Numbered from the stretch's first letter, positions 31,047 through 41,212 are shown. The stretch is 42,396 nt of DNA from a virus (IMGVR_UViG_2861064056_000003), one strand, 5' to 3'. A program made the numbers and translations. The notes: a model not told the origin generated them from the letters alone.

Positions 31047-31077
31047 CACCACCAGCGACGCCAATCATCTGGTGGTG
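31047..31077 (-). promoter_or_regulatory. RNA hairpin abutting the ant start codon
   Basis: Perfect 9-bp inverted repeat CACCACCAG-N13-CTGGTGGTG; on the mRNA the 3' arm ends directly at the AUG and covers the SD-like GGUGGUG. Confidence 0.4.
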
Positions 31078-31177
31078 AGCTGTGCAGGGTTGGCGTAACC
31101 GGCTAAGTGAACCCGGCGCTTCCACAGAAGCCCCCACACAGCCCACCATAATGCGAATGTGGCCGTGCCTAACACAT

Positions 31178-31197
31178 AAAAAAACCGCTAACGCGGC
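31178..31197 (-). terminator. Weak terminator between the nin genes and ant
   Basis: Minus strand CCGCGTTAGCGG hairpin followed by TTTTTTT. Confidence 0.3.
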
Positions 31198-31288
31198 TAT
31201 GCGTCACTTAGATATCCGGGACGCCAATCCCGGCAACCGATTTTGCGGCTGCGCGGAAACTATAGCCCCGGACTTTTTCTAAGTCAAT

Positions 31289-32464: not shown

Positions 32465-32875
32465 TCACGCCCCTTTCTTTGCTATCGGAGTGATGGAACT
32501 CAGCAGCAGGCGGCAGCGACCAGGCGCGCCAATGCGCTGCCCGGTTATCTTGTCGTAAGTTTCATGCGGTGAGGCACACCAGGTTGTCGCTGTTTCGTGG
32601 AGTTTCACTTGCCGCTCACCATTTCTGCGAATCGCGATCCCGGTGTGCGTTTTGCCCTTACGTTTCACTGCTGGCGCTGCGGCTACGGATGCCTGACGGG
32701 CAGGCTTAGCAGGGGTTGAAAAATTGCCTGCTTTAGGTCTTGGCACAAAAACCGCGCGAGTGCGCGCACGTGGCCCGACGTTCATATTCCACAAAATGAC
32801 GTCGAGATAGTTTTTACCGTCGTCTATGTGTCCTTTGTCCGACGGGTACTCTAATTTGCCTGGAGTGGTGGTCAT
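32465..32875 (-). CDS. Hypothetical protein downstream of the helicase
   Basis: 136 aa; ATG preceded by the conserved CCGAGGAAAGACCA motif. Confidence 0.35.
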   Translation of the reverse strand: MTTTPGKLEYPSDKGHIDDGKNYLDVILWNMNVGPRARTRAVFVPRPKAGNFSTPAKPARQASVAAAPAVKRKGKTHTGIAIRRNGERQVKLHETATTWCASPHETYDKITGQRIGAPGRCRLLLSSITPIAKKGA

Positions 32876-32896
32876 TGGTCTTTCCTCGGTTATTTC

Positions 32897-32910
32897 ACGC
32901 TGGTCAGGCG
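32897..32910 (-). repeat. Intercistronic motif CGCCTGACCAGCG, copy A
   Basis: Directly after the helicase stop and before CCGAGGAAAGACCA-ATG; near-identical copies at 35321..35333 and 37326..37338. Confidence 0.6.
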
Positions 32911-32913
32911 TGG

Positions 32914-34356
32914 TTAAAATTCATTTGTGCGAGAATTATCGCTACGGGAATAACGTTTATTTTTTTCTGAGCGGTCGTTGGTAAGGCGATAAACCTCCTC
33001 ATCGCTGATATCAATAACTGAGCCATTTTTCATCAGGGCATAGGCTGTTCCCGATGGTCCTTCGCGGTTCAGACGTAGCAACATTTCCATGAGATTTGGG
33101 TCGGCATTTTCGTTATAAACAGCATCACGATAGAGGCCAATCCAGACATCGCAATCTTGTTCGATCTGCCCGGTATCTTTACTGTCGCTCGGGTTAGGCC
33201 GCTTATCGGCACGTTCTTCAAGCTTTCGGTTGAGTTGCGTCAGCAGGACCACAACACAATCCAGCTCTTTTGCCAGGTTCTTCAAACCGGTTGTGATATC
33301 GCCATACGCAATATCCCTACGCTCTGCCGATTCGGTCTTCATCAGCGTCAAATAGTCAATTGCCACCAGGCCAACCGAGCCACGCATCCGTTTAACTTTT
33401 CGACATTCAGCGACAATATGCGCAAGGGTTACACCTGCCGTGCTGTCAATCATCATGTTGGATTCGGCAATCTCCCCCGCCTTTGCTATTGCGAGACTCA
33501 ATTCAGATTCATCGTTAGGGCCAAGATAAAAAATCTCCGAATTGACCTTTGCTTCCTGCGCAACCATGCGTTCAATGAGACTTCTGTCAGTCATTTCCAG
33601 GCTAAATACCAGCGTCGGCAAACGATGATTCAGAGCAAAATGCACCGCAATTTTATTAAACGCGGCTGTCTTGCCCATTTTTGGCCGGGCACCAATAACG
33701 ACCAATGAACCTCTTAACGCCTGCTTTGGTGCCATTAAGCGATCAAGGCTTTCGATTCCGAGCGTTAGTCCGGCTGCATGTGCTGGATCATTGAAACGGC
33801 GCTCAAGGTCATCTATCCAGTCATCGACGACTTCACTTGCCGGACGCAAACCGCCCTTATGCCCGGTACGGGAATGTTCGGCCACCTGCCCAATCACTTG
33901 CTGAACGGCGGTGATCCTGTCAGTAGCAGTCATATCTGCAGGCTGGATCATAATCTCCAGACAAGAATTCAACTTTTCCACGGCATAACGAAGAATGGCT
34001 TTTTCACGTACAATTTTCGCGTAGTTGACCATTGAGGCCGGAATCGCCGCCTTACTCATTTCAGCCAGGTATGCGAATCCCCCCACGCGCTCATACAGCC
34101 CCTTCGATTCCATCAGTTCGGTCAGTGTTATCAGGTCAGTTGGTTTATCAGCTTGAAATAATCCTTTGATCTCCCGGTAGATAACCTGATGCGCATTGAT
34201 ATAAAACGTTTCCGGTTTCAGTAACGCAAATACCGCATTGGTTCTGTCGTGGTCGGTATTCAGCATCAGACAGCCCAGAACAGCCTGTTCTGCGTCAACG
34301 CTGTACAGTGCAATCGCGTTATTTATCATTTGCGCGTTCTTCCTTGACCGAAACAT
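32914..34356 (-). CDS. Replicative DNA helicase, DnaB family (P22 gene 12-like)
   Basis: AEQAVLGCLML, Walker A GARPKMGKT, LNRKLEERADKRPNPSDSKDTGQIEQD..YRD.VYNEN match recalled E. coli DnaB. Confidence 0.85.
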   Translation of the reverse strand: MFRSRKNAQMINNAIALYSVDAEQAVLGCLMLNTDHDRTNAVFALLKPETFYINAHQVIYREIKGLFQADKPTDLITLTELMESKGLYERVGGFAYLAEMSKAAIPASMVNYAKIVREKAILRYAVEKLNSCLEIMIQPADMTATDRITAVQQVIGQVAEHSRTGHKGGLRPASEVVDDWIDDLERRFNDPAHAAGLTLGIESLDRLMAPKQALRGSLVVIGARPKMGKTAAFNKIAVHFALNHRLPTLVFSLEMTDRSLIERMVAQEAKVNSEIFYLGPNDESELSLAIAKAGEIAESNMMIDSTAGVTLAHIVAECRKVKRMRGSVGLVAIDYLTLMKTESAERRDIAYGDITTGLKNLAKELDCVVVLLTQLNRKLEERADKRPNPSDSKDTGQIEQDCDVWIGLYRDAVYNENADPNLMEMLLRLNREGPSGTAYALMKNGSVIDISDEEVYRLTNDRSEKNKRYSRSDNSRTNEF

Positions 34357-35074
34357 AGCAGCGTTCGGTAATCAGATAATCAAGATTTTTACGCCGCCAG
34401 AATCCTCCCCTGCCATTTGGCCTGTCCTCCAGCATCCAGCGACAATTGCCACCGATAAATTCCAGATAGGCCCGCCAACGGGACTCATTGAAATTGAATT
34501 TTTTCCAGAAAGTGCGAAGGTGTTTTTTTCTGCCGTCAGTGAGGATTTTCACTGGTGGCATCTCTGGCAAAATCTCGTGATAGGTATCGAGTATCACCTG
34601 ATAATTTATTCTCTGGTCGGCAGGTTGTTGGGTGTCGGCGTCAGCCGATTCACCATCAGTAATAATCTCTGTAGTATTCTCTGTAAGAATGTTTGTTGGT
34701 TTTCCACGTACAGGCCTGGTGGTTTTCCCCTCACCTGTATGTGGTTTTTCCGCATCCTTGTATGCGGACGTAAGTAGCTGGCACAACACATCATTATCGA
34801 TTTTGTAGTACAGCCTGGCAGGCAAGCCCTGTTTACGTTCCAGCAAGACGCCGAGACCACGTAGTTTTTTGCGCGCGCCCTCCTGCTCGTATCGTGAAAG
34901 CCCTGTTTCCTCTTCCCACTCATCCTGGGTTTTATATACCCAGCCGTCGTCAGTTGTTCTGTTTGTCCAGTACGTCAACTGCGACAGAAACAATGCGGCA
35001 GTCACGCCCATTTCAAGACGGATAAAACTTCTCTGGAAGGCTATGGGTCTATCAAGTAACGGGAGGATGTTCAT
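34319..35074 (-). CDS. Replication initiation / replisome organiser protein (O-like)
   Basis: 251 aa; N-terminal region resembles phage replisome-organiser domains; overlaps the helicase start. Confidence 0.55.
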   Translation of the reverse strand: MNILPLLDRPIAFQRSFIRLEMGVTAALFLSQLTYWTNRTTDDGWVYKTQDEWEEETGLSRYEQEGARKKLRGLGVLLERKQGLPARLYYKIDNDVLCQLLTSAYKDAEKPHTGEGKTTRPVRGKPTNILTENTTEIITDGESADADTQQPADQRINYQVILDTYHEILPEMPPVKILTDGRKKHLRTFWKKFNFNESRWRAYLEFIGGNCRWMLEDRPNGRGGFWRRKNLDYLITERCYVSVKEERANDK

Positions 35075-35295
35075 ATGCCCAAAGCCTCTGAGAGAACGCG
35101 ACAGCCAGCCTCATAGGCAGCGCCAGAGAGATTTTGCTCACGCAGTTTCGCTTTTTCTTCTTCGTACTTTTCCCATACAGAACGTGCAGCTGCGACGCGG
35201 CCATCGAATATGGGGCGGATCTCTGCAACATGTGCCGGGCGTCCATTCAGGTGCCAGCCGTTACGCCAGGTAATGCGGTCAATATGTCTTAACAT
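35071..35295 (-). CDS. Hypothetical small early protein
   Basis: 74 aa; ATGA-type overlap with the replication gene; preceded by the conserved GAGGAAAGACC motif. Confidence 0.4.
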   Translation of the reverse strand: MLRHIDRITWRNGWHLNGRPAHVAEIRPIFDGRVAAARSVWEKYEEEKAKLREQNLSGAAYEAGCRVLSEALGI

Positions 35296-35320
35296 CGGTC
35301 TTTCCTCGGTATAAGTTAAA

Positions 35321-35333
35321 CGCTGGTCAGGCG
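35321..35333 (-). repeat. Intercistronic motif CGCCTGACCAGCG, copy B
   Basis: Directly after the YdaT-like stop and before CCGAGGAAAGACCG-ATG. Confidence 0.6.
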
Positions 35334-35334
35334 C

Positions 35335-35811
35335 TCATGCATGGTGGTCTTGCGCAGTGCGTATCACTGCTCCTCGCGTCGCTACCAGCGCCGCTATTGC
35401 TTCGTCAATTTCCTGAATAGTTAACTCTGGCGCGAAGTGGAGATGTACAGCGTTAATCGCTTCCACCCCTTCTTTTGCCGCCAGCGTTGCCAGCAAAACG
35501 GGATCGCCCGGCGACTCCAGACGTGCCCGCCGTTCTGCGGGTAGCACGGCTTTCATCACACTGGCCAGCACCTGAGTTTTTCGGCGCGCCGCCGTTGTCT
35601 CGCCACGTAACCAGCGAAAGATTTTCTGCCGATTGTTGTTGATGGCTCTCCAGTCCACGTTGCCGTCCGCGTCCTCAAATTCATGTAGTCTCAACTCATC
35701 ATTGCGTCCCTGACTGAACCAGGCCCGGCAGATTTCAATCGTGACGAGTTCCTGCCCTGCCCTTGCCGCCCAGGTCAAAATCTCTTTTTGTAATTCCTCT
35801 TGGTTTTCCAT
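35335..35811 (-). CDS. YdaT-like early regulatory protein (CII position)
   Basis: 158 aa; NNNRQKIFRWLRGET resembles the recalled YdaT segment NQQNIYHRWLKGET; RBS AGGAGA. Confidence 0.45.
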   Translation of the reverse strand: MENQEELQKEILTWAARAGQELVTIEICRAWFSQGRNDELRLHEFEDADGNVDWRAINNNRQKIFRWLRGETTAARRKTQVLASVMKAVLPAERRARLESPGDPVLLATLAAKEGVEAINAVHLHFAPELTIQEIDEAIAALVATRGAVIRTAQDHHA

Positions 35812-35833
35812 AGCGTCTCCTGTCGCTAAAAAT

Positions 35834-35849
35834 TGATTACGCTTAATCA
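35834..35849. promoter_or_regulatory. Palindrome TGATTA-CGCT-TAATCA between the cro-like and YdaT-like genes
   Basis: Perfect 6-bp inverted repeat in the 58-bp gap. Confidence 0.25.
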
Positions 35850-35869
35850 GATTTGGGGCTCACCAACAG

Positions 35870-36100
35870 TTAAGCTGCTTCCGTTTTAGGCAAGCTGTCA
35901 TCTGGGTTTGGGTAAAGATCCGGTCTAAGATCATGAGGGGTCACGCGCCATTCAAGAGCTTCAGATGTGCGCAAAACCTCTTCACCGGGAACCCGTCCTT
36001 TGAACCAGAGGCTTACCGTTTGTGGTTTTTTCCCTAATCGCCGCCCTAACTCGGATTGACTCATTACGGAAAGAATTTTGTCTTGCAGTTGTTTATCCAT
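35870..36100 (-). CDS. Cro/YdaS-like HTH regulator
   Basis: Start taken at MDKQ with RBS AAGGAG; SQSELGRRLGKKPQTVSLW HTH; divergent from the repressor gene. Confidence 0.65.
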   Translation of the reverse strand: MDKQLQDKILSVMSQSELGRRLGKKPQTVSLWFKGRVPGEEVLRTSEALEWRVTPHDLRPDLYPNPDDSLPKTEAA

Positions 36101-36198
36101 ATGGACTCCTTGTGTCCGCGTCATCATTACAAACAATAACTGTAATTACAAATTATATTTGCAATGCTCCCTACAATTAAACCTTGTATCCTTACGGT
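36101..36198. promoter_or_regulatory. Divergent promoter/operator region (OR-like)
   Basis: 98-bp AT-rich gap with TTACAAA at 36127 and 36146, inverted TTTGCAA at 36158, and dyad TTACA-N9-TGTAA at 36127..36145. Confidence 0.5.
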
Positions 36199-36612
36199 AT
36201 GAACACAAAAACGAAAAACATGGCTTTTGCTAGCCGACTACAACGGATTCTAAAAGACTTAGGCTGGTCTCAATCTGAGTTAGCTCGCCATATTGGGGTT
36301 ACGGCTCAATCAGTTCAGGCATGGTGTAATGGGGTAACTCCAAGAAAAGATAAATTAGACAAGCTAGCAAAAGTGACCGGATACCCTGTTCATTTTTTCT
36401 TCATGAATGAAGGGGAATATTTGGATGAATCCACACTACACCCGGGTAATTACAATCAAGAACTAACCCCGCAAGAACAGGCTCTACTGCAACTATTCAG
36501 AGGACTGCCTGAGAGCGAAAAAAATAAATTAATCAATGAGCTAAAAGAAAAAAGAGAGCACTTCGATCTACTGCTAAAAGAACTACTTGAAGCCAAAAAC
36601 CAGACAAAATAG
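36199..36612 (+). CDS. DicA-like HTH repressor without a peptidase domain
   Basis: XRE-type HTH (QSELARHIGVTAQSVQAW) plus C-terminal LTPQEQALLQLFRGLPESEKNKLINELKEKREHFDLLLKELLEAKNQTK resembling the recalled E. coli DicA C-terminus; no SD before the ATG. Confidence 0.7.
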   Translation: MNTKTKNMAFASRLQRILKDLGWSQSELARHIGVTAQSVQAWCNGVTPRKDKLDKLAKVTGYPVHFFFMNEGEYLDESTLHPGNYNQELTPQEQALLQLFRGLPESEKNKLINELKEKREHFDLLLKELLEAKNQTK

Positions 36613-36730
36613 TTCAGTTCAAATTTCCAGGCCAGCCGCTGCTGGCATGCAACTTTCCCCTAACACAAAAACACCTTTACACAGTGAATATTTTTTTGCC
36701 CCTCACTACAAATTATTTTTTAAAAACACA

Positions 36731-36759
36731 TTGACCATTACAAATACAAATTGTAAAGT
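36731..36759 (+). promoter_or_regulatory. Putative PL-like promoter with operator dyad
   Basis: TTGACC, 17-bp spacer, TAAAGT; the spacer holds dyad TTACAAAT-ACA-AATTGTAA sharing the OR half-site. Confidence 0.35.
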
Positions 36760-37095
36760 CACTTTCATCAACAACGCTTACCCAGCGGCAGTTGTTCAGA
36801 AACACGTTCTGACAGCCGGAAAGACGGCACCAAATTTTGCGCGTCGGCGCCAACACGGTGACAGAGGGAAAGACTTCACCGGCATATGGCACATGTGTCG
36901 AAGCGGTCTGGATGGAAGCGGAGCCTTAACGCGTTGTCTCCATAGCAGGTAGCCGGAATGTGCAAGCCACAGCCAGGTATGAGCGATTGATTCACCATCA
37001 AGGCGATACGGTGTGACCACCAGGGAAGAGTCCTGGCTACAACACGAGAGCGCACTTCATCGACTCAACTTTGAGCTTTGTCGTTAAATTTTGAA

Positions 37096-37181
37096 ATGGC
37101 GGAGTGCGCTCCCGGTTGTGGTGAACAGGTGTTTAACGGGAACTCCCTGCCCGTTACCCGGTTCGATTCCGGGCGCCCATC
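37096..37181 (+). other. tRNA-like element with canonical T-arm, not a confident tRNA
   Basis: CCCGG-TTCGATT-CCGGG T-arm and a preceding AACGGG..CCCGTT stem-loop, but the acceptor stem fails in two of seven pairs and there is no CCA. Confidence 0.15.
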
Positions 37182-37325
37182 ATCAATTTGCTGTGTTTAG
37201 TCTTTGCCCAGTCCGCACGATGGGCCATTTTTTCACACAGCCAGGTTTTATCGCTGTGCCTGAGTCCCCAACAGGAGAGGCCAAACCCGCAGCGTGACAC
37301 CAGGGAAAGACCGGAGGAAGTACCA

Positions 37326-37338
37326 CGCCTGACCAGCG
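37326..37338 (+). repeat. Intercistronic motif CGCCTGACCAGCG, copy C
   Basis: Same 13-mer as 32897..32910 and 35321..35333 in the plus orientation; GCCTGACCAGC recurs at 37349 and 37384. Confidence 0.55.
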
Positions 37339-37622
37339 TTGACCATGAGCCTGACCAGCTCAAAACAGGAAAGACCAGCCCGGGCCTGACCAGCCCTGTA
37401 CGGTCGTAATGGAAACATAACGACGCCGGAAACGTAACCGGCACCCTTTAGATAGCAAAAGACCCGCACAAGGCGGGCCAGTTACCCCGAACGGCGACCA
37501 AACCATTCGGATTTATCACAAGTGACCAAACTTGTGATGAGGAAAGACCAACGACACTGACGCTATGGAAGCTGATCAATATTCGCTGATCGGCTCTGAG
37601 TATACATTACCAAGGAGTCGCT

Positions 37623-37943
37623 ATGGAAGCGCGCACCATCCCAGTAACACTCTTTATTCATTATGCAACTTCAACTTTCAGCCACGAAAAGCTGCTTGTT
37701 GCGACTGTTGATATGTCAAAAAATTTTCCAGACAGGTACATCCTTCTGGAAAGCCGCGAAATTGAAATTACCGTTAACCAGCCCGAGCCAATCGACATCA
37801 TCGGTTTACAGGTCGAGCAACTGCGTGAACAAAAACAGAAAACAGTCGCCGACGCCCAACAGCGTATTGCTGCTATCGATGACAAAATCCAGCAGTTACT
37901 TTGCATCGAATACACGCCAGATACCGATGAGCTCCCCTACTAA
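37623..37943 (+). CDS. Hypothetical early protein
   Basis: 106 aa; strong RBS AAGGAG; first clear gene of the plus-strand operon. Confidence 0.45.
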   Translation: MEARTIPVTLFIHYATSTFSHEKLLVATVDMSKNFPDRYILLESREIEITVNQPEPIDIIGLQVEQLREQKQKTVADAQQRIAAIDDKIQQLLCIEYTPDTDELPY

Positions 37944-37973
37944 AAACCACTGACCTGTAATGAGGAAAGACCA

Positions 37974-40190
37974 ATGACCATTTTTAACGGCTTGTTAGAA
38001 GCGAAAAAAGGCGCGCTCAAAAACGGCGCGATCCCGGCGCTGGCCATCGCCATCGCCGCCCCTAACAAAAAAGTTGCCGAGAACATCATCATCGGCAAAT
38101 TGTGGGAAGCCTACCCTGACCACGGCGACAACTATTTCAAACCTAAAATCTGGGAAGATGCCCCGGGCCAACCGCGCCCAGGCGTCGGTGAGTTTGATGA
38201 GACGTTTGCCACAGAACACAGTTTTGATGGCGAAAAATGGGTAGTTAACACTCCTGTTGATTCAGATTGCAGTTCAGCAGATATCTCACAGGTTAGCGAC
38301 CTGATGAAACTGCCGGCTCGTGAACGATTCGCCGCCGTTCTGCTGTTCAGCCACGACGCCAACGAAGTCGACAGTGAATTGCTTGTGCAGACGCGTGAAT
38401 ACCTGGAGATGCTCGATAACAGTGATACTGACAGTGAGGATGAGGTTGACGCGTTTAACCGCATCGTTCTTGATGCCATGGTGGCGTGTAAGCCCATCGA
38501 GTACATGCATATTGCTGGATTGAATAATCTGGTACATGCAATTTTGGCAAGTTGCGATACCCAGGAACAAAACCCGACCAGTTGGACTATCTCCAAATTT
38601 ATAAAAAAATGGGTAGAGAATCCCGGTAAACGAGATGAAATGCTGCCGGAGGTAAAACCAGAAACAGCATCCGCACGTCCTTACAAACAGACTCACGCCA
38701 CTCTGGATCGTGAAATTGCCTGCGCCCTGTTACCTGTTGCCCCGGAAAAAATCACCCCCAGCATCCTGAAAGCGGCAGACGAAATAATCAGTCAGGACAG
38801 GGAAGATTTTAAACGCTGGTCAATGGCCTTGCGCACAACGGATCAGATCCTTGCCTATGACCGCGCATCAGTATTCGGTGTTATTCAGAGCGCCCCCGCA
38901 AAAGACACGTACCACTTCCCACAATCCCTGCGCAGTCACATCGACAACTGGCTGCAAGCTAACGGGCAGCGTGATGCAAATGCTGTTGAAGAGAAGCCAA
39001 AGGAAGCAGCACCCAAGGATGATGTAAAAGTCACCAACCACGGCGGCGGACGATTCTCAATTGATGGGATGATGTCAGAAACACCCTCAAATCAGGGCGA
39101 AAAAAGCGAAGCTGCAAATGCTGGAGAACGTAGTTTGCAGCAGTTGCGTGAGCAGTTTGTCACGCCTCGCCATGTGTATGACGTACCTGAAAATAACGCC
39201 GTATCACAGAGGGAACCTGCAGCTATTACCCTGGCAGAAGAGACTCCTCCACAAGAACAACTTAGCGAGCAGGTAAAGGATCTGGTGCAGAACGTTGACG
39301 CGCTGGTTGAGCGGATCCATGCCGAAGAGCACAAGCGGCAGAATGCAATCTCAGCTATCGAAACGGAGTTAAAGGACTCAGATGACACGGATAACCTGGC
39401 ATTGTGGAAGAACGTATTCAAAACCGATGAGCGCTTCACCAGTGCTTTCTCTCAGAATGGCGGCGGCACATCCATCAACGGCACTTATATAGCGATGAAA
39501 GCGACTCGCGAATTTGGGCCATTTGGTATTGGCTGGGGGGTAGAGGTGCTGGAGGAGCGCTTTGATAAAGGCGCACCAATAGTTCGCAAAAAACAGGTTG
39601 GTGAAAAAATAGAATGGGATCTGATTCAAGACGGTGTTGGCGGGTACCTATGTGAAATGCACCACACCATGAAAGTGAGAGTCTGGTACATATTGAATGG
39701 GGTACGCGGTGAGTCCGAGGCTTACGGATGCACACCTTATATCTACGACACTAAATACGGACCAACAAGCGACGGCGAAGCACCGAAGAAATCCTGGACG
39801 GATGCTGTTAAGAAAGCGCTATCCCCTCTCGGATTCAGCGCCGATATTTTCATGGGCCTGTACGACAATCCGGAATACCGCCAGAGGAATAAAGCTGAGT
39901 TTGATATCAAGAATGCCAGCGAGAATGCGGAAGATGCTACCCGTCTGCGTAAGGAACTGGATGAGAAGCTTATCAACGTTGCCAATACGCTGGCCGCCGC
40001 GGTAACCGCCAACGAAGTAAACAAGGTATTTGGCCTCATCGCCCGCGAAGTGGATGTACACAGGAAAGCAGCGGAAACCAAAGGCGATAAAGAATATTCA
40101 TCGTATCTGGGATCACGTCTGCGCCGTATCACCGACATTAAAACTGAACGCCTCGCCGCCCTTACCGCTGCACAGGAGCAAACAGCATGA
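37974..40190 (+). CDS. Rad52/Sak-like single-strand annealing protein with ~480-aa N-terminal extension
   Basis: C-terminal half has YIAMKATREFGPFGIGWG and SWTDAVKKALSPLGFSADIFMGLYD, resembling Rad52-family motifs (YIEG...ANE.FG.NGW and TDA.KRAL..FGN..G..LYD); acidic linkers; 738 aa. Confidence 0.5.
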   Translation: MTIFNGLLEAKKGALKNGAIPALAIAIAAPNKKVAENIIIGKLWEAYPDHGDNYFKPKIWEDAPGQPRPGVGEFDETFATEHSFDGEKWVVNTPVDSDCSSADISQVSDLMKLPARERFAAVLLFSHDANEVDSELLVQTREYLEMLDNSDTDSEDEVDAFNRIVLDAMVACKPIEYMHIAGLNNLVHAILASCDTQEQNPTSWTISKFIKKWVENPGKRDEMLPEVKPETASARPYKQTHATLDREIACALLPVAPEKITPSILKAADEIISQDREDFKRWSMALRTTDQILAYDRASVFGVIQSAPAKDTYHFPQSLRSHIDNWLQANGQRDANAVEEKPKEAAPKDDVKVTNHGGGRFSIDGMMSETPSNQGEKSEAANAGERSLQQLREQFVTPRHVYDVPENNAVSQREPAAITLAEETPPQEQLSEQVKDLVQNVDALVERIHAEEHKRQNAISAIETELKDSDDTDNLALWKNVFKTDERFTSAFSQNGGGTSINGTYIAMKATREFGPFGIGWGVEVLEERFDKGAPIVRKKQVGEKIEWDLIQDGVGGYLCEMHHTMKVRVWYILNGVRGESEAYGCTPYIYDTKYGPTSDGEAPKKSWTDAVKKALSPLGFSADIFMGLYDNPEYRQRNKAEFDIKNASENAEDATRLRKELDEKLINVANTLAAAVTANEVNKVFGLIAREVDVHRKAAETKGDKEYSSYLGSRLRRITDIKTERLAALTAAQEQTA

Positions 40191-40756
40191 GCACTGCTAT
40201 CGCTATTGCAAAAGAATATGCCAGTCTGATTGACCTGTTAGAAACCGCCGATGAACTGACGCCAGAGATGATCGCCGACACGCTTGAAGGCATGGAAGGA
40301 GAACTGGGAGACAAACTGGACGCCATGATGGTCATCTGCCGTAATTTACAGGGCAATGCCAATACCTGCGCTGAAGAAATGTCTCGCCTGGCAACCCGTA
40401 AGACGTCCTTTGAAGGCAAGGAAAAAGCAATTCGAAAGCATATGCTCACCTGCCTGCAAGCTGCTGGCCTGGATAAACTGAAAACCGCAAAAAACACATT
40501 TACTGATGCACAGGGGGCTATCCGGGTAATTATCGATAGCAAAGATAAGATCCCGGATGAGTATGAGGGCGTGTCACTTGTTGATGTAGAAACGGTTATT
40601 ACACCAAACAAGCGAGCCATTAAAGAAGTGATTGAATCTGCGGAGGCGGTTGCCGCCGAAATACTGGCGCGTGGAGAAACACCACCAGCCGAGTTATTAA
40701 ACCCGGTACCAGGCGCACATCTGGAACGCGGCGAACGGTCACTGAGGATACGCTAA
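40187..40756 (+). CDS. Gp157-family protein
   Basis: 189 aa; ATGA overlap with the annealing-protein gene; ..DSKDKIPDEYEG.. resembles the Gp157 family pattern. Confidence 0.5.
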   Translation: MSTAIAIAKEYASLIDLLETADELTPEMIADTLEGMEGELGDKLDAMMVICRNLQGNANTCAEEMSRLATRKTSFEGKEKAIRKHMLTCLQAAGLDKLKTAKNTFTDAQGAIRVIIDSKDKIPDEYEGVSLVDVETVITPNKRAIKEVIESAEAVAAEILARGETPPAELLNPVPGAHLERGERSLRIR

Positions 40757-40938
40757 TGCTTAAACTCACATTAAAGCGTGGTGACGCGGTTCACCTGGTA
40801 CTTGCCGATGGTACCAATGGCATTATTGAAGCACGGAGCCGCTGCGAACTTGGGCTACACCTGCCAGAAAACATTAAGGTCACTCGGGAGAAATCGGCAT
40901 TCACCCCACAAGAACTGATTACGCCTAATCAGAAATAA
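40756..40938 (+). CDS. Small protein (60 aa), loosely CsrA-like at the N-terminus
   Basis: TAATG overlap with the upstream gene; MLKLTLKRGDAVHL.. has weak resemblance to CsrA MLILTRRVGETLMI.. Confidence 0.35.
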   Translation: MLKLTLKRGDAVHLVLADGTNGIIEARSRCELGLHLPENIKVTREKSAFTPQELITPNQK

Positions 40939-40987
40939 AAACTCACCATCGCTAGCATTGCGATTCACCAGACACCGGAGGATCACA

Positions 40988-41212
40988 ATGCTGCGATGGC
41001 AACCGGGAGCAACTCTGCTCTCCGCATTTGATATCAAAATTGGTCGACTGTCGGCCAGCGTCAGGAAACAGACTTTGACCGAGTCTGATATTGCCCGTGC
41101 CTGCCAGAAGGCAGATGACGCAATAAGCTACATAATGAGGAAAGACCATGAAAAGCGATCACGACATAATCACCAGAGAAGAAATGGTCGAGCTGACGGG
41201 AAGCCCACTTAA
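40988..41212 (+). CDS. Hypothetical small basic protein
   Basis: ATG at 40988 preceded by RBS GGAGGA; overlaps the next gene by 64 nt. Confidence 0.3.
   Translation: MLRWQPGATLLSAFDIKIGRLSASVRKQTLTESDIARACQKADDAISYIMRKDHEKRSRHNHQRRNGRADGKPT

Follow-up and report, generated by a model that had tools for sequence, protein, structure and literature searches.

The sar RNA of phage P22 covers the ribosome-binding site (RBS) of ant, and the OOP RNA of phage lambda pairs with the 3′ end of cII; both are short and intrinsically terminated. Hfq-type trans-acting small RNAs (sRNAs) occlude RBSs, and sponges or anti-sRNAs also exist, such as the prophage-encoded AgvB and AsxR of enterohaemorrhagic Escherichia coli. 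C4, reportedly described by Citron and Schuster in 1990 and by Heinrich et al. in 1995, is a phage-encoded small RNA with a pair of short complementary elements, of which one covers an RBS; the two together hold lytic-pathway genes off and so provide a second layer of immunity. STnc6030, from the Salmonella prophage BTP1, is an antisense RNA with a short seed that excludes superinfecting self phage (PMC7067206, in which OOP is also mentioned). Here we describe, in a 42,396-nucleotide (nt) stretch of DNA from the virus IMGVR_UViG_2861064056_000003 (‘the window’), a predicted sRNA gene that lies antisense to the leader of a PL-type promoter, together with repeated intercistronic units that are, judging from the sequence, probably the trans-target sites of this phage-encoded, base-pairing sRNA.

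Like sar and OOP, the predicted sRNA is short, has an intrinsic terminator and lies opposite early or immunity genes. However, sar and OOP act only on the transcript that they overlap, whereas the most conserved part of the predicted sRNA, its seed, matches distant, non-overlapping gene starts, so that its action would be in trans, on a regulon. It shares with Hfq-type sRNAs a layout of single-stranded seed, hairpins, Rho-independent terminator with a U tail and several targets paired at the Shine-Dalgarno (SD) sequence and AUG, and the counterpart of a sponge would by analogy be the PL leader, which offers additional complementary sites. Host regulons are nevertheless built from short, imperfect and individually evolved sites, whereas the predicted targets here are the phage's own early genes, which carry an identical, co-evolving 13-nt site. 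The C4 RNA of P1 and P7 (grouped with P4 CI RNA, N15 CA RNA and isrK in Rfam clan CL00128) offers a functional likeness, that of antisense-RNA immunity. No member of the C4 clan matches the sRNA locus: cmscan finds isrK/C4 only at 31068-31265, and in 36600-38000 isrK reaches 14 bits against a gathering threshold of 50. Furthermore, C4 is processed from a leader and acts on one operon, whereas the predicted sRNA has its own putative promoter and terminator, would target 4-9 RBSs in both early operons, contains UGGUC three times and is antisense to the PL leader. STnc6030 plays, in excluding self phage, the part that we propose for the predicted sRNA in a lysogen, but it is at least 500 nt long, is antisense to late genes (tailspike, DNA-injection) and has a single target region; it has also been tested experimentally, whereas our case is built on sequence.

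The early region consists of two opposed operons. On the minus strand, a PR-type operon contains, in order, cro/YdaS-like, YdaT/cII-like, 74-amino-acid (aa), O-like and DnaB genes, followed by a chain of small genes. On the plus strand, a cI-like gene is followed by the PL-type promoter, a non-coding leader of ~850 nt and the early-left genes, which encode a 106-aa protein, a 738-aa ‘exonuclease’, a Gp157-like protein, a 60-aa protein, Xis and Int. An earlier note on this DNA had pointed to a unit repeated across both operons in fixed orientation, and match counts against shuffled sequences bear this out. Exact copies of the 13-mer CGCCTGACCAGCG lie at 32898-32910 (-), 35321-35333 (-) and 37326-37338 (+), and two-mismatch variants at 37348-37360 and 37383-37395 (+); at up to two mismatches there are 6 matches against 0.86 expected, a count reached in none of 100 shuffles. 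The 12-mer GAGGAAAGACCA has exact copies at 32876-32887 (-) and at 37539-37550, 37962-37973 and 41137-41148 (+), and one-mismatch copies at 35296-35307 (-) and 37366-37377 (+); its 11 matches at up to two mismatches compare with 2.56 expected, and again no shuffle out of 100 reached that number. Ranked by copy number, the top three 11-mers in all 42 kb are GCCTGACCAGC, GAGGAAAGACC and AGGAAAGACCA, with five copies each; their copies lie entirely within 32875-41150, all in the sense of local transcription, and the motif is absent from the window's late genes.

Most details of the earlier description stand. The 13-mer does follow stop codons directly, with gaps of 3 nt to the helicase stop (32914-32916) and 1 nt to the YdaT-like stop (35335-35337), and its spacing from the initiation motif, put at 9-12 nt, measures 8 and 11 nt to CCGAGG, a trivial difference. 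The initiation motif also precedes, as claimed, the genes called annealing protein and excisionase-like, whose start codons follow at 37974 (+) and 41148 (+). The gene called annealing protein matches a PHROG ‘exonuclease’ family. The copy listed at 37536-37550 exists (37539-37550), but no properly spaced start codon comes after it. What the note missed is that the 13-mer is a hairpin, that the likely regulator is an antisense sRNA gene, and that the copies in the leader differ in kind from those at the junctions.

The 13-mer forms an RNA hairpin, NGC[CUGACCA]GCN′, with a [C/A]UGACCA loop and stems that covary. Stems of at least 4 base pairs (bp) flank NTGACCA in 124 unique contexts, compared with 5-15 for control 6-mers. 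The outer stems vary among relatives and pair in every variant (AGCGC/GCGUU, GCGC/GCGC, ACGC/GCGU, GGGC/GCCC, CGGCGC/GCGCCG, GAGC/GCUC, CACGC/GCGUG and GGUGU/GCACC). In 100 unique junction units, pairs 1-4 are nearly always formed, and pair 4 is G·U in 18 cases but A·C in 2, an excess from which we conclude that the hairpin is selected in the mRNA sense. Its loop lies 15-20 nt (mode 18) upstream of the GG of the RBS, across an A/U-rich spacer, and CUAACCA loop variants occur among relatives. Two such hairpins stand at junctions of the PR-type operon. The first, J1 (32896-32912, -; CACGC[CUGACCA]GCGUG), comes just after the helicase stop and is recognised by its sequence and by covariation in the family; the second, J2 (35317-35337, -; UGAGCGC[CUGACCA]GCGUUUA), comes just after the YdaT/cII-like stop and contains G·U pairs in the mRNA sense. 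Neither J1, which is followed by AAAUAACC, nor J2, followed by ACUUAUACC, has the U-tract of a terminator in the window, and U runs 3′ of the hairpin, after GC-rich stems, are found in only some relatives.

The second motif is a signature RBS of 13 nt, GAGG[A/C]AAGACCAA, that is, GAGG[A/C]AAGACCA(A). Conservation across 217 unique target sites is confined to a block of exactly 13 nt (-5 to +7) with sharp edges; in the 100 junction units, AAGACC lies 0-5 nt (mode 1) upstream of the start codon. Every signature RBS of the window stands at the head of a run of early genes with overlapping or abutting starts and stops, and the genes within each run are presumably translationally coupled. The cro gene and the YdaT/cII-like gene lack the signature. 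Two further ideas about this RBS, pairing of AAGACCA with 16S rRNA (UGGUCUU near 986) and similarity to the epsilon enhancer of T7, were dropped: the rRNA segment is base-paired and varies among host genera, and the spacer is not conserved in relatives.

Opposite the PL leader we predict an sRNA gene of ~125-145 nt, running from ~37594 to ~37456 on the minus strand (37456-37594, -); its counterpart in ZF40 would lie at ~5235-5365 (+). In every relative the antisense strand presents the same order of elements: a -10 box, a 5′ hairpin, the seed, two hairpins named SL1 and SL2, GGGGUAA, a terminator hairpin and a U-tract. The -10 box is TATACT in the window (37599-37604, -), with T47, A48, T49, A50 and T52 of alignment A3 nearly invariant. 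Among relatives it reads TATAAT, TGATATAAT (an extended form, in some) or TAAAAT at a fixed position of the antisense strand, and TATAAT is perfect in the ZF40, Serratia, Symbiopectobacterium and Pectobacterium copies. The 5′ hairpin has covarying stems and GAUC in its loop. (This GATC, a Dam site at ~37575-37592 on the minus strand and columns 60-64 of alignment A3, is kept in most relatives, and its position a few nt past the presumed start hints at methylation- or SeqA-sensitive expression.) Between the 5′ hairpin and SL1 lies the seed, UUGGUCUU[U/G]CCUC, which is invariant, unpaired and 13 nt long; in the window it reads UUGGUCUUUCCUCAU (-), the reverse complement of 37537-37551. SL1 (37516-37537, -) and SL2 (37487-37510, -) both have UUGGUC loops. 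A consensus scan independently located the terminator stem and the UUUU after it (37461-37479, -).

The conservation of these structures points to the antisense strand. RNAalifold, applied to raw MAFFT alignments, mis-paired the seed and the terminator, so the structure of SL1 and SL2 was specified by hand; the terminator stem, which has no single alignment register, was judged by eye. In SL1 and SL2 together, 93.8% of cells are paired and 18 of the 19 pairs show changes on both sides, whereas none of 500 shuffles paired as highly and slid controls gave 40-56%. When the two strands are compared, the antisense has 92 G·U cells and the sense 6, with pairing of 93.8% and 79.7%; the G·U counts thus indicate that SL1 and SL2 are selected on the antisense strand. 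The terminator, too, would work in the antisense orientation only, with covarying stems and an invariant U-tract in 36 diverged sequences; in the sense orientation the tract becomes an A-run placed before the hairpin, where it would have no purpose. A covariance model built from 33 sequences matches 37456-37553 (-) with 103 bits (E 6.5e-26), and in 78 of 97 sources it yields a single match per locus. In all 13 genome loci this match shares its strand with the PR operon, and the antisense relation to the PL genes was checked in two of them, L133 and ZF40. No Rfam family reached threshold at the sRNA locus in a scan that admitted E values up to 10, and a literature search with the motif strings returned no relevant paper. 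The svsR RNA of prophage NC-SV (PMC12803456) was considered and is a different RNA, encoded by a phage integrated in icd, where it adjoins cI at the gene's 3′ end.

The seed connects this gene with the signature RBSs, of which it is the exact complement, over the same 13 nt. We calculated duplex energies for 222 open reading frame (ORF) starts, and the four signature RBSs rank as the four best; the next value is -21.8 kcal/mol and the median -10.6 kcal/mol. Best of all (-35.2 kcal/mol) is the RBS before the 738-aa exonuclease gene (37962-37974, +), which heads a block of exonuclease, Gp157-like and 60-aa genes. The second (-31.3 kcal/mol; 32875-32887, -) consists of GAGGAAAGACCA and the A of the AUG, which starts at 32875, and heads the chain of 136-, 78-, 103- and 74-aa genes, in which starts and stops overlap or stand 1 nt apart. 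The third (-26.3 kcal/mol; 41137-41148, +) precedes the DUF4224/excisionase-like gene at the head of the xis-int block, and the fourth (-25.6 kcal/mol; 35297-35307, -) is GAGGAAAGACC, followed by a G and an AUG at 35295, before the block of 74-aa, O-like replication and DnaB helicase genes. Read by eye, the duplexes at the exonuclease and 136-aa genes extend to ~19 pairs across the AUG with one G·U, which would explain why both genes begin with AUGACC.

The one variable letter of the seed changes together with that of the RBS. A U in the seed goes with an A in the RBS at 382 sites and with other letters at 5; a G in the seed goes with C at 68 sites, with U (which is G·U-compatible) at 6 and with A at none. 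The template of the seed is the motif copy at 37539-37550, downstream of which there is no conserved start codon or ORF, and a leader peptide translated from this copy was ruled out, as neither frames nor start codons are conserved. The second element of the unit has a partner as well: the UUGGUC loops of SL1 and SL2 complement the GACCA of the target hairpin loops, and in an antiparallel duplex the sRNA hairpins fall on the side of the target's CUGACCA hairpin, a placement that speaks for kissing as the initial contact.

The earlier note had named loss of position or orientation in relatives as the finding that would speak against a shared element. Both are kept in distant relatives. A scan of viral contigs by exact pattern identified at least 120 contigs that share one layout: a pair of hairpin-plus-RBS units in one operon, separated by 2.4-3 kb, and, on the opposite strand, a leader with 1-3 hairpins and 5-8 copies of GGAAAGAC. 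The unit is also present in prophages or phage of E. coli, Serratia, Pectobacterium (phage ZF40), Symbiopectobacterium and Providencia. The Enterobacterales relatives (ZF40, Serratia, Symbiopectobacterium, Pectobacterium and Providencia) were reached via the 74-aa protein, and genomes found in this way have the signature RBS at 5-9 early genes each. GGCAAGACC takes the place of GGAAAGACC in essentially all copies from ZF40, Pectobacterium, S. marcescens, Symbiopectobacterium and Providencia, a concerted change that leaves AAGACC invariant. Given that the 13-mer folds, in the mRNA sense, into a hairpin with covarying stems, and that the units are kept in relatives, the suggestion of an RNA-level element is supported in the form of a site that binds a regulator; the processing, coupling and linker roles offered beside it are not needed.

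The syntenic phage BUCT708 has a leader ~72% identical to that of the window, with three leader hairpins, units at the same two PR junctions in the same orientation, and the signature RBS before three PL genes. It is recorded as ‘Stenotrophomonas phage vB_SmeS_BUCT708’ (OM816834.1), and shares motifs that we otherwise saw only in Enterobacterales elements; given these motifs, its synteny with an E. coli prophage and the leader identity, the stated host looks doubtful. The phage family is common: among 5,426 complete E. coli genomes, largely of clinical strains, 475 have the prophage, as detected through its leader, and in strain SK1144 it adjoins tRNA-Leu, tRNA-Cys and tRNA-Gly genes.

The PL leader, for which RefSeq has no annotation, carries further sites of both kinds. 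It is transcribed from a PL-type promoter at 36731-36759 (+; TTGACC, 17 nt, TAAAGT) that is flanked by operator-like TTACAA...TTGTAA repeats. Two hairpins at 36815-36878 (+), GCCG[GAAAGA]CGGC and GAGG[GAAAGA]CUUC, show GGAAAGAC in their loops and compensatory changes relative to BUCT708; both are complementary to the sRNA seed and may act as decoys. Further downstream, an array at 37304-37396 (+) combines GGAAAGACC at 37304 and 37368 with three CUGACCA-loop hairpins (37325-37339, 37346-37362 and 37382-37396), whose closing pairs are C-G, A-U and G-C. In total the leader holds four or more extra seed-complementary GGAAAGAC sites and three GACCA-loop hairpins. Between the two groups lies an intrinsic terminator of the PL-proximal leader transcript (37211-37235, +), with a stem kept by compensatory changes in relatives. 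It sits ~460 nt after PL, and ~125-175 nt after it in minimal leaders; its 5′ flank, UAGUCUUUGCCC, looks like the seed and is able to base-pair with the second GGAAAGAC hairpin, at 36867, which hints at an attenuator switch.

We propose that the sRNA would make first contact through its UUGGUC loops, which would kiss the GACCA of the CUGACCA hairpin (5-6 bp) ~18 nt upstream of the RBS. Pairing from the SD sequence to the start codon would then occlude the RBS and repress translation of the whole block behind it, and the blocks so repressed would be those for replication, nin-type functions, recombination and xis-int. More speculatively, the sRNA promoter may be constitutive, so that the sRNA would be made while PL is silent and could add a second tier of immunity at the RNA level, directed at early transcripts that arise from leakage or superinfection; firing of PL might counteract it through convergent transcription, a fully complementary leader and the extra decoy sites. 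Taken together, these steps would amount to an RNA-only second immunity circuit, in which a constitutive sRNA silences all delayed-early blocks via a 13-nt address, the PL leader, with its hairpins that show GGAAAGAC and GACCA and its terminator flanked on the 5′ side by a seed mimic, acts as sponge and switch, and the A/C variants of the address sort phages with heteroimmune repressors into RNA-level groups of immunity or exclusion. This wider circuit is less likely than not, and we advance it only tentatively.

Several observations weigh against a trans-acting sRNA. Its putative promoter is recognised by the -10 box only, the -35 being poor in the window type. The antisense strand has the more stable fold in 32 of 34 diverged sequences, but this is weaker evidence than the strand test, because a G+U-rich strand would be favoured anyway. 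On the opposite strand, the seed corresponds to a further sense copy of the motif, so its co-variation with the RBS could be concerted evolution under some other constraint, and this co-variation may stem from only one or two evolutionary switches. The kissing contact is deduced from complementarity only, without support from covariation, because both partners are invariant, and some Providencia junctions have the RBS without the hairpin, which therefore is not obligatory. Finally, the reach of the sRNA could be limited to cis, with the PL leader and the 106-aa gene as its only targets.

A different regulator has to be considered as well. In CsrA targets a hairpin stands upstream of a site that overlaps the SD sequence, and CsrB is a multi-copy array of hairpins. 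The units and leader described here resemble this architecture, and GACC is common to both motif types. A phage or host RNA-binding protein of the CsrA or RegA type might thus read the GACCA loop and the SD-adjacent AAGACC, with the leader array as its sponge and an antisense RNA that is irrelevant or acts only in cis; the concerted A/C change could equally track a changed specificity of such a protein. However, no early ORF matches a Pfam or PHROG family annotated as RNA-binding, and no convincing arginine-rich, N-like ORF was found in the early region. The 92 G·U pairs would be A·C mismatches in the sense RNA, so the GACCAA-loop leader hairpins are not sites for a protein on the sense strand, and the antisense -10 box, the terminator U-tract and the G·U bias would all be left unexplained. 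We therefore think a protein reader unlikely. CsrA itself, with a CsrB-like sponge, is excluded because the GGA core is missing from the C-variant clades (ZF40, Pectobacterium, S. marcescens, Symbiopectobacterium and Providencia, with GGCAAGACC), and an Rfam scan of the leader gave no match to CsrB or RsmZ.

It is also conceivable, and in our estimation very unlikely, that the units are inherited cassettes of a strong RBS and a stabiliser, or boundary sequences that promote the exchange of modules, with no trans-acting factor. Many different N-termini follow the helicase junction, so that the genes downstream of the unit differ between phages; the leader is itself modular, and this phage family has recombination genes. 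Yet the outer stems change by compensation, which lowers DNA homology and so points to selection on RNA structure, and the edges of the 13-nt block are sharp and coincide with the seed. Furthermore, the A-to-C switch hits all copies of a genome together, there are copies in the untranslated leader without a start codon, and late genes lack the motif. A linker role would be secondary at best. The least probable reading, that the hairpins are transcription or processing signals (boxB-like N sites, attenuators, RNase entry sites or 3′ stabilisers), could appeal to the CUAACCA loop variants, to the U runs after GC-rich stems in some relatives, to the A/U-rich spacers and to a PL leader terminator that must be read through, but it finds no convincing N-like or arginine-rich early ORF, no N family in Pfam or PHROGs and no boxA-like CGCUCUU(U)A noticed upstream of the hairpins, which follow cII-like or helicase genes or the leader terminator rather than being promoter-proximal, it meets J1 and J2 without U-tracts, and it leaves the invariant RBS spacer and its seed complementarity unexplained. 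The boxB of phage 21 is a CUAACC hexaloop (PMC12550061), and like the target hairpin it is a small hairpin of an early transcript with a similar loop; this is a resemblance only, as the target loop has 7 nt rather than 6, is most often CUGACCA, and is intercistronic, with no N gene or boxA.

The predicted sRNA is not the only antisense RNA of this prophage. A bona fide isrK/C4-type RNA at 31068-31265 (-; 80, 75 and 53 bits), with a1/b1 target elements, sits 5′ of a gene with an ORF6N domain (antirepressor-type), and the prophage therefore has a second, P1-like RNA immunity module. We considered this RNA as a trans partner of the units and rejected it, since its loops complement its own local a/b sites and not GACCA or GGAAAGACC.

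The leader has other features of its own. At the 5′ end of the PL transcript is a hairpin, CGC[UUACCCA]GCG (36775-36787, +; CGC[ACUAACCAC]GCG in relatives), that resembles the CUGACCA family, and a conserved UCAGAA/UUCUGA hairpin follows it downstream. Compared with the minimal leaders of relatives, the window has an insertion at 36880-37051 (+), extending to ~37090. This structured-looking, non-coding module of ~170 nt shares 70-77% identity with intergenic stretches, devoid of annotation, in unrelated phages (SPN1S, Tyrion, PAT1, Klebsiella SopranoGao and the P1-like D6 and SJ46). An alignment of seven sequences contains a long-range helix and hairpins with some compensatory changes; the module has no Rfam match and may be an undescribed mobile phage non-coding RNA. 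Next to it, a tRNA-like piece at 37101-37183 (+) consists of a long hairpin like a variable arm, then a T-arm, CCCGGUUCGAUUCCGGG, then CGCCCA. It is kept in ZF40 (~5470-5500, other strand) and deleted in BUCT708; ARAGORN found no tRNA or tmRNA in the leader, where a tRNA-Sec model reached only 19 bits.

If the units are indeed targets of the predicted sRNA, the new features of the system would be a regulon with one identical RBS address that co-evolves with the seed across both early operons, a putative accessory kissing hairpin, a threefold UGGUC in the sRNA and a decoy-rich leader. The natural compensatory variants (UUUCC with GGAAA, UUGCC with GGCAA) make the sRNA reading testable, and because the isolated Pectobacterium phage ZF40 carries the whole system, RNA-level superinfection immunity and the logic of sRNA and sponge can be tested there. 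A region of roughly 1 kb that current annotation leaves blank would then contain a new lever on the choice between lysis and lysogeny: one sRNA that could control translation of the blocks for replication, recombination, excision and nin-type functions via a shared RBS address. On the more tentative reading of a wider circuit, the A/C address groups would also shape which related prophages can co-infect or recombine.

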